From the IMG/VR virus record IMGVR_UViG_3300020171_000019, positions 1-64,000 of that record: a DNA stretch of 64,000 bases; one strand, written 5' to 3'. Under the pieces are notes generated by a model. That model saw only the letters and a list, made by a program, of their open reading frames with translations, did no database searches and was not told where the DNA came from. Below, one piece after another: positions 28,224 through 33,438 of the stretch. The DNA is from a virus. Numbering within the stretch: position 1 is the first letter of the stretch; each line of letters opens with the position of its first letter. The position numbers and the translations under genes are program-made.

Positions 28224-28859
28224 ATGAGGACGAGCATCAAATGGCTCACGATCGGTATCCTTCTGGCGTCGGCGGTGACGGTCTGGGCGGCAGCAACGCA
28301 CATCGGGCGGATCGTCTTTACGGAGGTTCCGGAAGTTACCGGTAGTAACGCAGAGACGATTAGCAATACCACCAATGGCTCTTGGACGCTGGACAAGTTG
28401 ATTATCACGAGTTCACCGGAGATTACAGGAGCCAATGGGGAGTATTGGACTAACACCACAAACAACATCTGGAGTTCAGATGGGGCCGTCAATACTACGG
28501 CACAGTTCACCGTTGATAGTTCGCCCATTGTCAGAACCCTGACCATCCCGATAGACAGTCTTGGCATGACGGACGTGGACATTCCGGGGGTTATCACGCT
28601 GGAGAGTGACATCACCATATTACGAGCACAGGTGACCTCGATTGATGTGACAGCCGGAAATGCCTGCTACGTTGTGTTCCATTCTGGGGCGATACGGGAT
28701 TCTGTCTCAGTTGCTCAGGGTGCACAGACAGGCGCGAACACTACAGACTATAGCCTATCGGCAGCGGCTGTGTGCAGTCTCCTTGTAAGCGACGGATCGG
28801 CAGGCACTGGCGGGACTGGTGCCATGGTGGTGATTCAGTATACCGACAAGAACGACTAA
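28224..28859 (+). CDS. Beta-rich virion-module protein with Sec-type signal peptide
   Basis: SD AAGGAGG; MRTSIKWLTIGILLASAVTVWA-A; short internal repeat (PEVTGSNAETISNTTN / PEITGANGEYWTNTTN). Confidence 0.7.
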   Translation: MRTSIKWLTIGILLASAVTVWAAATHIGRIVFTEVPEVTGSNAETISNTTNGSWTLDKLIITSSPEITGANGEYWTNTTNNIWSSDGAVNTTAQFTVDSSPIVRTLTIPIDSLGMTDVDIPGVITLESDITILRAQVTSIDVTAGNACYVVFHSGAIRDSVSVAQGAQTGANTTDYSLSAAAVCSLLVSDGSAGTGGTGAMVVIQYTDKND

Positions 28860-28864
28860 CCGAA

Positions 28865-28890
28865 GGGAGGTGTCCTAACAGGCGCCTCCC
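28865..28890 (+). terminator. GC-rich hairpin after the capsid gene block (terminator or processing site)
   Basis: GGGAGGTGTC-CTAACA-GGCGCCTCCC; no strong U-tract. Confidence 0.5.
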
Positions 28891-28915
28891 GTTCGCCTTA
28901 CATTGGAGTTGATCA

Positions 28916-30457: not shown

Positions 30458-30471
30458 GGAAGGGGCGATCA

Positions 30472-30972
30472 ATGAAAACGATCTTGAGTATTTTTGTAGT
30501 GGTCGGGCTTCTGTCTGGGGGTATAGCACAAGCGGAGTTGATCGAGGGATATGCGGCCAATCAGGTTGTTTTGTGGGATTCAACGGACATATTCACAGAC
30601 TCTACAGACGTCACGCTATCCACTATCGTAATGATGGAGCAAAGCACACGACTGTCGGTCTACTATCAGGCGGTTTCGGCAAGCGGGACACCGAATATCA
30701 AGCTCGATATGCTCCAGTCCTACGAGAATACTGCATCGAAGTTTGCGACACCGGACACAACTACGACTCTGCGGTATAGTGGTGGTTGGTATGAGATTGC
30801 GAATATCCCGGCCATTGCAGACAGCTTGAAGGACGAAGTTGTCCACATCAAAGAGATTGCGCCGATTCCGATGAGATACTTGAGATTGAGGGTCACTGGG
30901 CGGGCTACAAATGCGCCTGATACACGAGTGAGAGTTGTTCTATTCGCACAACCACCCGTCCGCGTTCAATAG
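30472..30972 (+). CDS. Beta-sandwich virion-module protein with Sec-type signal peptide
   Basis: MKTILSIFVVVGLLSGGIAQA-E; ends PMRYLRLRVTG. Confidence 0.7.
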   Translation: MKTILSIFVVVGLLSGGIAQAELIEGYAANQVVLWDSTDIFTDSTDVTLSTIVMMEQSTRLSVYYQAVSASGTPNIKLDMLQSYENTASKFATPDTTTTLRYSGGWYEIANIPAIADSLKDEVVHIKEIAPIPMRYLRLRVTGRATNAPDTRVRVVLFAQPPVRVQ

Positions 30973-30984
30973 AGGAGATAGGCA

Positions 30985-33438
30985 ATGAAAAGACTGAGTT
31001 TGATTCTGGTTGGGCTGATTGCCCTTGTGCTTCCTGCGGTAGGGAGTGCATCAAAGTGGACAGTTGCGGACACGTTGCGCGTGGACAAGATCATTGCCAA
31101 AGATTCAAGCGCGGTACAGATGGGCGCAATGAGCACTGCGTTGAGCGGTAAGATCTTGGCTGATTCGGTTCTGGGGCGGACGGATACGAACACAGGCATT
31201 GTGTTGGCCGGTAGCGATACGATCAAGATGCAGACATCCGGAACGGTGCGCCTGAAGGTGAATCCTGACGGGACCGTGACGTTCATTAGCAACATCGGGG
31301 CTGAGAATGAGCCTACTCCATCATTCCCTATTTCATTCTTGAGCGGCACAGGGGACAAGATCGCACTGTGGGGCCAGTCCGGCAACACTTATGGTTTTGG
31401 TATTCAGAGTAACCTGCTACAGATTCACACGGACGTAACTGGTGCGGACATTGCATTCGGGTACGGCTCCTCGGCGGCACTGACCGAGACGGCTCGGTTG
31501 ACAGGCGCAGGACAGCTACAGATACCCACTATTGACGTTGCTGGAGGGATTCTACTCGGCGGAGATGTCAACCTCTATCGCGCTTCCGCTAATCGCCTGA
31601 AGACGGATGATGCTCTCACCGTAAACGATACTCTTAGCGTTACGGGTAAGAGTATCCTGACTGGGATTGTAAGCGTTGGAAACGGAACCGCTGCTCTTCC
31701 AGCGATAGCCGGTATCAGCGATCCGAATACCGGAATGAGGTTTCCAACAGGCGATACGCTTGCGTTCTCGACAGGCGGGAGCGAGCAGGTGCGGATTGAT
31801 CCTAGTGGCAACGTCGGCTTCGGAACCACAACTTTCGGCACGAATGCGGCGAAAGTGATCGGTCTTAGCGCAGGGGTTTCTCCTACCACGAGTCTTGCGG
31901 ATATGTCCCAGATATGGGCAGTAGACTACAACGGAGCGGGGTCTAATCGTCCGTATGTCAGAACCGAGGAAGGCAACTCCTCGCCAATCGCTGCACTCTC
32001 CGAAACGGCAATCTACTACGGCATCACGTGGAACGAGTCTGCGGATTCCTACACGAGAACCGGCAGAACTGCAGGACACAAGGTCGCTGCTACGCTTCCT
32101 GCTGGTATGCTGCCGATTCAAGAGTCTATGCGTGGCTGTCTTCTCTCCGACGCTGGAGCGGTGAACTACTACCTATCGCCTACAAACTGGGCATATAAGG
32201 AAGACGGTGCAACCGCCTCAGTTCTCACCGGCGCAGGTGGCCAGGTGATGGTGGAGATACCGAAGTTCTGGTACCGCTACGGTTACGCAAGCACAACTCA
32301 TACGTGGGAAGTATCCCCCGTTCCGATGTCGGGTTTCGCGCCTCATCCCGCGTTCTACAAAGACGGTGCTTGGGTGGACAACAGATACATCGGAGCATAT
32401 GAGGGAACGCTCTACAATGTAGGGAGCGCTTTCTACGAAAACAAGTTCGCACCGGTTGCTTCGCATTCTGCAACCTTCGATGTTGATCCCGGAACGATTA
32501 CTGCCGGCTCAGGAACGCCTTATTCGTGGTTGGCGGCTGGCGATACGATCGTTGTTACGGGAGCTGGAGGCAGTAACGGGACATACGCTATTAGCACGGT
32601 GACGGGAACCGTTATTACGTGTACTGGAGTCATAGCCGGTGTTGATTCTGTGCAGGCAACAACGGTGATTTCGTCTCTTGCGGCGGATTGGACTGCAACC
32701 ACAGGCGATAAGCTGAGCTCAGTGTCAGGATTGTTCGCAGTCTCGAATGGCACGCGAGCGCAGTTCCGCGAGATCGCCCTGAATAGGGGAGCTGGCTGGA
32801 GGCAGATAGATTACGATCTGGTTGCGGCGATTCAGCTCTTGTGTCTGACTGAGTATGCATCGTTCTATACACAGTCCGTGATTGGCGCAGGCATCTCGAA
32901 TGTCGCCGACTGGAGTGCTTACAATGCTTACTATCCCATTGCCAAAACCGGCACAGGTAATGCGATCGGGAATGCGAGCGGTAACACGGCAGGTTCAACA
33001 ACTGCTGCGGCAGAGGTGAGTGATTACGTCAAGTATAGAGGAATTGAACAGTGGTACGGACACCTGTGGAAATTTGTAGATGGGATCAACATCAACAACA
33101 ACATCCCATATCGGTGCAACACGGAGACTAACTTTGCCGATGACACGGCAAGTAACTACACCGCGATGACGAATGCCCTCGGCGCTGCAGTGACACTGCA
33201 CAACGCCAATGGGTATGTGGCTACGCTGCAAAAGATGAAATGGGGATTTCTGCCTGCGAGCGTAGGCGCAGACGGAGCAACGAAGATCACCGATTACTAC
33301 TATCAGAATAGCGGCTGGCGCGTCGCCTTGTTCGGTGGCGCTTCTGAGGATGGCGCGAATGACGGTGGCTTCTATTGGTATCTGAATAATGCCTCATCCG
33401 ATGCCAATCCGTATATTTGCGCCCGCGTTGGATTTTAG
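30985..33438 (+). CDS. Fibre-like DGR target protein: signal peptide, fibre-shaft repeats and C-terminal CLec-like domain with VR
   Basis: MKRLSLILVGLIALVLPAVGSA; DTNTG/DPNTG and VRIDPSGNVGFG repeats; GQVMVEIPKFWY, HPAF, YIGAYEG, YRGIEQWYGHLWKFVDG, FGG...ARVGF. Confidence 0.88.
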   Translation: MKRLSLILVGLIALVLPAVGSASKWTVADTLRVDKIIAKDSSAVQMGAMSTALSGKILADSVLGRTDTNTGIVLAGSDTIKMQTSGTVRLKVNPDGTVTFISNIGAENEPTPSFPISFLSGTGDKIALWGQSGNTYGFGIQSNLLQIHTDVTGADIAFGYGSSAALTETARLTGAGQLQIPTIDVAGGILLGGDVNLYRASANRLKTDDALTVNDTLSVTGKSILTGIVSVGNGTAALPAIAGISDPNTGMRFPTGDTLAFSTGGSEQVRIDPSGNVGFGTTTFGTNAAKVIGLSAGVSPTTSLADMSQIWAVDYNGAGSNRPYVRTEEGNSSPIAALSETAIYYGITWNESADSYTRTGRTAGHKVAATLPAGMLPIQESMRGCLLSDAGAVNYYLSPTNWAYKEDGATASVLTGAGGQVMVEIPKFWYRYGYASTTHTWEVSPVPMSGFAPHPAFYKDGAWVDNRYIGAYEGTLYNVGSAFYENKFAPVASHSATFDVDPGTITAGSGTPYSWLAAGDTIVVTGAGGSNGTYAISTVTGTVITCTGVIAGVDSVQATTVISSLAADWTATTGDKLSSVSGLFAVSNGTRAQFREIALNRGAGWRQIDYDLVAAIQLLCLTEYASFYTQSVIGAGISNVADWSAYNAYYPIAKTGTGNAIGNASGNTAGSTTAAAEVSDYVKYRGIEQWYGHLWKFVDGININNNIPYRCNTETNFADDTASNYTAMTNALGAAVTLHNANGYVATLQKMKWGFLPASVGADGATKITDYYYQNSGWRVALFGGASEDGANDGGFYWYLNNASSDANPYICARVGF
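33315..33431 (+). repeat. DGR variable repeat (VR)
   Basis: 117-nt ungapped match to TR; 16 of 17 mismatches are at TR adenines. Confidence 0.95.

Follow-up and report, generated by a model that had tools for sequence, protein, structure and literature searches.

Where would a tailed phage use proteins that are encoded directly after its major capsid protein (MCP) gene and that begin with what look like signal peptides for export? The question is raised by a stretch of 64,000 nucleotides (nt), called the window here, which is the first 64 kb of the 76,137-base IMG/VR virus record IMGVR_UViG_3300020171_000019 (estimated to be 81% complete) and has all of its genes on the + strand. Four genes follow the MCP gene, encoding protein A (211 amino acids (aa), 28224..28859), protein B (513 aa, 28916..30457), protein C (166 aa, 30472..30972) and protein D (817 aa, 30985..33438), the last of which is the target of a diversity-generating retroelement (DGR). 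The general view is that tailed phages assemble their particles entirely in the cytoplasm, a route that would be closed to A, C and D because of their working-looking Sec leaders. As judged from their sequences, these three proteins are very probably exported from the cytoplasm, and the reading tentatively favoured here, with a probability of about 45%, is that they make up an extracytoplasmic adhesin module that is directed to the cell envelope and forms no part of the virion.

Leaders of three late proteins

An earlier note on this DNA had pointed to the open reading frames (ORFs) at 28224, 30472 and 30985 as having basic-hydrophobic-small-residue N-termini behind good Shine-Dalgarno (SD) sites, and both the SD sites and a rule-based leader test bear this out. 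The SD of A is AGGAGG at 28213-28218, 5 nt upstream of the ATG at 28224; C has GGAAGGGG upstream of the ATG at 30472 and D has GAGGAG upstream of the ATG at 30985. In A the leader comprises residues 1-22 (nt 28224-28289, MRTSIKWLTIGILLASAVTVWA followed by A) with a predicted cut at VWA/A (the slash marks the cut), in C residues 1-21 (nt 30472-30534, MKTILSIFVVVGLLSGGIAQA followed by E) with a predicted cut at AQA/E, and in D residues 1-22 (nt 30985-31050, MKRLSLILVGLIALVLPAVGSA followed by S) with a predicted cut at GSA/S. The leader test is a rule set of our own: the n-region must have a net positive charge, the hydrophobic run must be free of charged residues, and positions -3 and -1 must be occupied by small residues. 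The net charge of the n-region before the hydrophobic core is +2 in A, +1 in C and +2 in D, the uncharged hydrophobic run extends over 19-22 residues and small residues occupy -3/-1 in all three leaders, which by sequence have the build of the Sec/signal peptidase I type. None of 11 other head and tail proteins of the same genome, including B, passed the test; it was also passed by the Pal-like lipoprotein, by another lipoprotein candidate and by the RlpA-like enzyme described in the last section. It also holds, as stated in the earlier note, that three of the four genes after the MCP gene have leaders, B having none in either copy seen.

Conservation is a stronger argument for the leaders than the rule-based test. 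Homologues lacking the hydrophobic N-terminus had been named in the earlier note as a check on its claim. Every full-length homologue found for A and C (four each) and for D (two) retains the leader, and 46 of 90 members of the wider C family are without one. The four relatives of A, which are 53-73% identical to it, have an invariant VWA or AWA site. The leaders of C and its four relatives differ in length and are unalignable, and AXA-like sites (AQA, VQA, ARG, VTA and AKA) stand immediately before a conserved [EQD]-[LV]-x-x-G-[YF]. The two relatives of D are P0011 and P0061, the latter being the fibre of groundwater contig L006, and P0061 has the leader MRKVWVGWLLGVLLCWPVLGHA, with about one third of its positions in common with D's leader. 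After the predicted cut P0061 continues with SKWTVADTLRVDKIVAKDSS, which is identical in 20 of 21 positions to the 21-residue mature N-terminus of D (SKWTVADTLRVDKIIAKDSSA, nt 31051-31113), although the whole proteins are only 36% identical. The leaders drift with their physico-chemistry retained and conservation begins exactly at +1, and therefore they seem to behave as cleaved Sec leaders do.

Several other interpretations of these N-termini were rejected. Lipoprotein and Tat signals are out, as a lipobox cysteine and a twin arginine are absent from all three leaders (in contrast to LSGC in the product of 51667 and LVGC in that of 58795), and a type IV pilin-like leader is out for want of a G/F..E motif. 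Wrong start codons do not agree with the SD sites and the in-frame conservation of the leaders, and T4-style capsid-targeting peptides do not agree with leaders of canonical Sec type on a cargo that includes a long fibre. A rationale in disulfide folding was also discarded: A has 2 cysteines, C has 0 and D has 5, with no paired-cysteine pattern; A has one invariant cysteine, and two of those in D are common to its leaderless homologue in Methanosarcina virus MetMV.

Fibre D, its retroelement and the accessory island

Behind the leader and the conserved mature N-terminus, D consists of a shaft to about residue 330 and a C-terminal part of receptor-binding type. Residues 214-335 match tail-fibre PHROGs (phrog_18345, phrog_9942) and residues 327-815 match phrog_5302 'tail protein' (E 1e-88), which is the sole family match of the tip, since Pfam and PDB sequence searches gave none for it and its lectin-type fold is putative. 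Tail proteins of several phages are also matched by D in tblastn. Over the C-terminal ~490 residues D shares 49% identity with a leaderless protein encoded at the end of the MetMV tail module, and because of this leaderless homologue and the tail-protein family match the tip may be considered a mobile module of receptor-binding type. When the N-terminal 340 residues (leader, anchor and shaft) were used as query, 168 proteins were found; of the 117 shaft homologues listed from outside D's clade, 87 have Sec-type leaders. Many shaft homologues harbor Peptidase_S74, YadA-head repeats or PF26696, and several come from bacterial genomes, Flavobacterium among them, with contigs as long as 2.3 Mb. 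Within D's own clade, P0061 combines a D-type N-terminus with a Peptidase_S74 tip (E 3.6e-14).

D is a genuine DGR target. Its last 39 codons form a variable repeat (VR, 33315..33431, 117 nt) that is 85% identical to a template repeat (TR, 33490..33606), the VR being the sole other copy of the TR in the 76-kb record. The alignment is gapless over the 117 nt, with 16 of its 17 mismatches at TR adenines and 17 of the 33 TR adenines unchanged, and 128 nt after the TR begins a DGR reverse transcriptase (RT) gene (33735..34769; Pfam RVT_1, E 2.2e-15). The adenine bias and the adjoining RT confirm the earlier proposal that the C-terminus of D is under adenine-directed hypermutation. P0011, the closest relative of D (85% identical overall), differs from it at VR codons. 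No Avd-type match was found for the 127-aa ORF after the RT, and between target and RT there is no room for an Avd gene. The system resembles that of BPP-1 and its Mtd protein in the TR/VR pair, the adenine-specific changes, the location at the C-terminus of a fibre-type binding protein and the adjoining RT. It differs from the surveyed phage targets in that its target has a leader and sits in the head block and not in a tail-fibre block; the phage DGR targets of that survey were reported to have no signal peptides or transmembrane regions (Benler et al., 2018, PMC6199706), and leaders on DGR targets are typical of cellular ones (Roux et al., 2021, PMC8144416).

Protein A carries, after its leader, two to three PEITGSNxExxSNxTNGxW-type motifs and a beta-rich C-terminal domain, and from its sequence it looks like a short fibre. 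It has no Pfam or PHROG match; its AlphaFold2 (AF2) model, built on 5 sequences, was too poor for use (predicted local distance difference test score (pLDDT) 43), and its structural-feature matches are viral hypothetical proteins of ~200 aa (a lead only). Protein B starts with MAVVYGDVSAS, as does its copy in contig L004 (68-69% identical), and comprises a beta-rich N-terminal part and three repeats of ~75 aa, read by eye at about residues 226-298, 313-381 and 399-470. No Pfam, PHROG or PDB sequence match was obtained for B, and neither B nor one leader-bearing C homologue had a tblastn match in GenBank phages. Scans of viral contigs with A, D's anchor, P0159 and P0013 gave no matches.

In protein C the leader is followed by a single domain of ~145 mature residues, which is predicted to be a jelly roll (AF2 on 77 sequences, pLDDT 87.7). 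Among 48,161 solved chains the best match to this model is the N-domain of XepA (Z 11.2, root-mean-square deviation 2.6, 105 residues aligned). The family of C comprises 91 remote homologues, 31 of 77 sequences match phrog_28213, and it is a phage family. It occurs in two forms, with a leader in 44 of 90 members (median 153 aa) and without one in 46 (median 132 aa), and because of these two forms and their medians the leader of C would be a detachable add-on of ~21 residues. The C-family genes of six other phage contigs are late-region genes too, often following the MCP gene at a distance of a few genes, and four of the six adjoin large leader-bearing proteins, some with Beta_helix or Laminin_G_3. 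Of the 41 proteins encoded no more than four genes away from a C-family gene, 11 have leaders, vs 6 of 89 elsewhere (Fisher p 0.004; seven loci that are not fully independent, proteins of at least 100 aa, crude gene caller). The widespread and uncharacterised C family (phrog_28213) gains a context from these neighbours, as it tends to adjoin fibre, beta-helix and lectin proteins of exported type.

Some of these loci have features of their own. C-family genes are located beside leader-bearing Beta_helix, Laminin_G_3 or pentapeptide proteins in L007 (5071-7342), L028 (1097-10498), L029 (7001-10301) and L030 (3674-7877). A Wzy_C-like membrane protein (29.1 bits, under the Pfam cut-off of 31.7) also stands beside the C-family gene of L007, and the locus of L029 is directly followed by transmembrane proteins, a lipobox protein and an integrase-like gene (by eye). 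In L008 (8055-12618) a leaderless C-family gene precedes genes resembling those for GT2-type glycosyltransferases, a methyltransferase and a DegT-type aminotransferase (judged from N-termini). A link with periplasmic glycosylation, as the Wzy_C-like gene of L007 and the sugar-transferase-like genes of L008 might hint, is only a lead.

A, B, C, D, the DGR and three small membrane proteins occupy 7.8 kb (28224-36060) between the MCP gene (27035..28213; Pfam Phage_capsid_4, E 1.3e-20) on the left and a putative head-tail connector gene on the right (36060..36821, assigned from its position between capsid and tail genes). Distant relatives were found through the MCP, at 29-32% identity, and A, B, C, D, the DGR and the holin-like genes are in none of them. 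L020 and L022 have only one to three small genes, none with a match in the block, between the MCP homologue and a connector homologue (27-29% identity, E 1e-18), and in other distant relatives (L017-L021) the MCP runs directly into small head-completion genes. Only the close clade carries the block: L004/L014 has the order scaffold, decoration, MCP, A, B, C, and L006 has C, the fibre, an 89-aa ORF and a holin-like gene, without a DGR. Because distant relatives are without it and the close clade has it, 28224-36060 is an accessory insertion, and A through the holin-like genes make up an island specific to this lineage. The earlier note had called the leader-bearing proteins capsid-linked, a description that holds for their gene position after the MCP; this position is its sole basis, however, and the block is absent from the distant relatives.

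The right part of the island starts with the gene of the 127-aa protein (34766..35149), which overlaps the RT stop, gives weak matches to DUF6218 (0.009) and phrog_2292 (0.002) and has no counterpart in L006. It is followed by a holin-like membrane protein of 93 aa (35131..35412; weak match to phrog_1299, E 0.0044), which has a homologue after the fibre gene of L006. Two small membrane proteins of 109 aa and 102 aa (35426..36060) with hydrophobic segments and no family match form the end of the island; the 109-aa protein has a transmembrane segment and a probable coiled coil (by reading), and the stop of the last gene overlaps the connector start (36060).

Where the probably exported proteins would act

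The adhesin-module reading is drawn from the island status, the D family with its likeness to mosaic adhesive trimer (MAT) fibres, the XepA-like C and the holin-like neighbours. The leaders would be working Sec signal peptides, removed by signal peptidase I. Late synthesis of A, C and D, on transcripts shared with the head genes, would be followed by passage through the inner membrane of a diderm host and folding in the periplasm, apart from the particle built in the cytoplasm. D would be a modular trimeric fibre, composed of leader, conserved N-terminal docking segment, shaft and exchangeable tip. The tip would be of a putative lectin type and rewritten by the DGR at adenine-templated positions, and that of the relative would be a Peptidase_S74 self-cleaving chaperone. 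The site of action would be the cell envelope or the outside of the cell, and the module may be freed at lysis, perhaps timed by the holin-like neighbours.

Known systems offer partial parallels. The MAT fibres of Bdellovibrio bacteriovorus have a signal peptide, form phage-tail-fibre-like trimers whose mosaic tips may or may not include S74, and are exported by this diderm predator and displayed on its surface (Caulton et al., 2024, PMC10769870); a beta-rich domain that is conserved and measures ~130 aa comes directly after their signal peptide (PMC10769870). D is similar in its leader, conserved N-terminal region, fibre shaft and exchangeable tip (S74 in the L006 relative, none in D). The likeness noted is one of architecture; the MAT genes are chromosomal genes of a predator, unlinked to a DGR or to phage head genes, whereas D has a DGR-diversified tip of putative lectin type. 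XepA (XkdY) of PBSX is a late protein, encoded between fibre and holin genes, that crosses the membrane on export and is missing from particles (PMC6834076; XepA and SPbeta YomS, PDB 6i56, 6i5o). C resembles its N-domain in the jelly roll, a likeness of fold only. XepA comes from a Gram-positive host and forms a pentameric dumbbell of two domains, the C-terminal one YomS-like, whereas C has one domain and a Sec leader. Porphyromonas phages also harbor leader-bearing genes of unknown function, read as envelope modifiers (Matrishin et al., PMC10367356).

The earlier note had recognised no described system here, which is too broad in view of the MAT fibres, XepA and the leader-bearing proteins annotated as virion parts in phage phi18:3 (see below). 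The route itself is undescribed in the literature found, in which searches returned no paper on exported fibre modules or on a periplasmic assembly branch in tailed phages. What would be new on a conservative reading is a phage late-region island that combines an exported fibre of MAT-like build with a DGR. If true, a phage-borne DGR would diversify a likely exported fibre, that is, a MAT-like surface adhesin with its own hypermutation engine, which would represent a new accessory function.

A number of observations weigh against such a module. The leaders of A, C and D were called from rules and conservation patterns, and export is inferred from them; B has no leader in its two copies, and half of the C family is leaderless. 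The genes from MCP to D are tightly packed in the head operon (intergenic gaps of 10 nt between MCP and A, 56 between A and B, 14 between B and C, and 12 between C and D), which favours a virion role, and promoter- and terminator-like sites across the block are no commoner than in shuffled sequence. D has the conserved anchor and swapped tip that are found in virion fibres, and no outer-membrane translocation domain was recognised in it, which leaves surface display unexplained. The XepA match of C exceeds those to generic jelly rolls by only ~1.3 Z and is not backed by sequence, XepA and YomS being absent from a PDB-sequence profile search with 77 C-family sequences at E up to 10. The C model also matches the capsid cement jelly rolls of phage 7-7-1 (9hz8_G, Z 8.4), BPP-1 (3j4u_H, Z 8.1) and KHP40 (7dou_4, Z 7.5); these cement or decoration proteins are like C in being single jelly rolls encoded shortly after the MCP but have no leaders, and Z 7.5-8.4 is the generic jelly-roll range. 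Lastly, the GenBank record of the cultured Cellulophaga phage phi18:3 (NC_021794) annotates gp085, gp086 and gp087 as virion, structural and tail proteins 'based on experimental MS/MS proteomics' (MS/MS, tandem mass spectrometry). The three genes are consecutive (L033 3892-9584), and their products all have Sec-type leaders at the start, which end in SQ, AQ and AQ, respectively. phi18:3 is comparable to the phage studied here in being tailed and in having neighbouring large late proteins that each bear a Sec-type leader, but it is a podovirus of a Bacteroidota host with no DGR and with MS/MS virion annotation, and the likeness noted lies in the leaders.

The explanation that comes next shares the export step and differs in the destination. 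A, C and D would be exported, cut and folded in the periplasm and would join finished particles at the holin breach or at lysis, docking on head or neck via the N-terminus of D, perhaps onto B or the decoration proteins, and the DGR would diversify a head fibre that aids adsorption. Such appendages are possible, though on balance doubtful. They would account for the tight coupling of the genes between MCP and connector, the tail-protein and tail-fibre PHROG matches of D with its anchor-and-tip build, the likeness of C to capsid cement jelly rolls (Z 7.5-8.4), the leaderless C-family genes that other phages have at a distance of a few genes downstream of the MCP and the phi18:3 proteins; moreover, a DGR-variable protein should travel with the genome that encodes it, for which a virion part would be the most direct means. 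On the other hand, we know of no tailed phage that adds parts after export. Docking would have only the seconds around lysis in which to take place, relatives can do without the block, no paired-cysteine pattern in A, C or D explains a need for the periplasm, and the MS/MS annotation of phi18:3 is compatible with co-purification and silent on leader cleavage. Compared with virion fibres, D shows the family similarity (phrog_5302, tail-fibre PHROGs) but not the absence of an export signal, since its leader is conserved and canonical. A second, extracytoplasmic branch of tailed-phage assembly, with D as a DGR-diversified head or neck fibre and A and C as its partners, is to the same degree uncertain, and the leader-bearing virion proteins of Cellulophaga and of many uncultured phages suggest that it could be widespread. 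If true, virion appendages that mature in the periplasm would be a new assembly route. The interpretation by export given in the earlier note is upheld as far as it concerns Sec leaders on late proteins, from sequence, and neither of the destinations that it proposed, capsid appendages or display on the host cell, is singled out.

It is improbable that the N-termini do not serve as export signals in practice, being instead uncut anchors, trimerisation helices or targeting peptides that the prohead protease removes. Half of the C family does without a leader, the MetMV homologue of the D tip is leaderless and lies in a tail module, and capsid proteins of Porphyromonas phages have predicted signal peptides that were read as probably cut by the prohead protease (PMC10367356). 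However, the full n-h-c build with small residues at -3/-1 is present in all three leaders, and these evolve freely with the cut site and the next residue fixed, a pattern of cleaved Sec leaders and not of structural helices. A bacterial cell would moreover route such N-termini to Sec regardless, and a lectin-tipped fibre of 817 aa is unlikely as an internal head protein.

Phages are known to encode envelope proteins in their late regions, such as Lom and Bor of lambda and the T5 lipoprotein Llp, the last being cited as a precedent for masking. With these precedents, a putatively exported, binding-type protein with a hypervariable tip in an accessory island could be thought to bind the host's own receptor or incoming rival phages, in the periplasm or on cell debris, for superinfection exclusion or to spare progeny a loss to debris, with the DGR tracking variable targets, but this is the least likely explanation and very improbable, since the late head operon position suggests that expression would come too late to exclude other phages in a lytic cycle, the ORFs tested include no integrase (in a record 81% complete) and a fibre build with a conserved docking end would be needless for a soluble blocker.

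Source genome, host and further observations

The head block reads portal (19131-20864, identified by gene order and the ORF map), MuF-like head morphogenesis gene (21822-23897), protease/scaffold-like gene, two paralogous proteins of 141 and 142 aa in the decoration-gene position, and MCP. The connector gene is followed by a Phage_tail_S gene, the tail tube (Phage_tube_2) and large distal tail proteins, and a 1119-aa protein downstream of the tail tube is taken as the tape measure from its size and position. Because of the head block and the set of connector, Phage_tail_S, tail tube and putative tape measure genes, the source is a tailed phage of siphovirus type. Identical fragments of this uncultured phage occur in groundwater metagenomes of three studies, with no coverage of the VR in the independent runs and no RNA data set with the phage listed among public runs, and two short contigs with relatives come from the 0.1-um fraction of Hainich groundwater. 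No near-identical phage was found among GenBank phages, and two bacterial-genome scans, with the C subfamily and the MCP as queries, gave no prophage relatives.

The host is probably a two-membrane bacterium and not of Bacteroidota type, because of the strong SD sites, an OmpA/Pal-type lipoprotein, two lipobox proteins and a leader-bearing RlpA-like enzyme; taken together, these sequence features point to a diderm host. The OmpA/Pal-type lipoprotein (lipobox LSGC, 51667-52194; Pfam OmpA E 1.2e-18, phrog_7897 E 8e-28) is encoded inside the distal tail operon and is a further putative Sec substrate among the structural genes. Two paralogous small lipobox proteins (58795-59310, LVGC; 60073-60360, WAGC) have near-identical mature starts (GQDE) and no family match, and they are candidate outer-membrane lipoproteins of spanin type. 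The RlpA-like DPBB_1 'lytic transglycolase' (130 aa, E 6e-24) has a Sec-type leader and is encoded beyond the window (genome 72427-72819, L026 9427-9819); it is a candidate exported endolysin, in which case the phage would depend on Sec late in infection anyway.

Four other features were seen along the genome. The MuF-like protein (21822-23897) has a mini-intein-like insert (C...TGDTKIITKDG ... VHNC), seen by eye, and between it and the portal lie three small hydrophobic ORFs of 59, 116 and 74 aa (20866-21822), with no family matches, of which the middle one is leader-like. The early region encodes a TnpB-type protein at 3128-4351 (Cas12f1-like_TNB E 4e-20, OrfB_IS605). Beyond the window there is a MoxR-VWA pair (genome 67044-69576, L026 4044-6576), in which 253 nt separate a bpMoxR AAA+ ATPase (E 8.5e-56) from the VWA-domain protein downstream of it.

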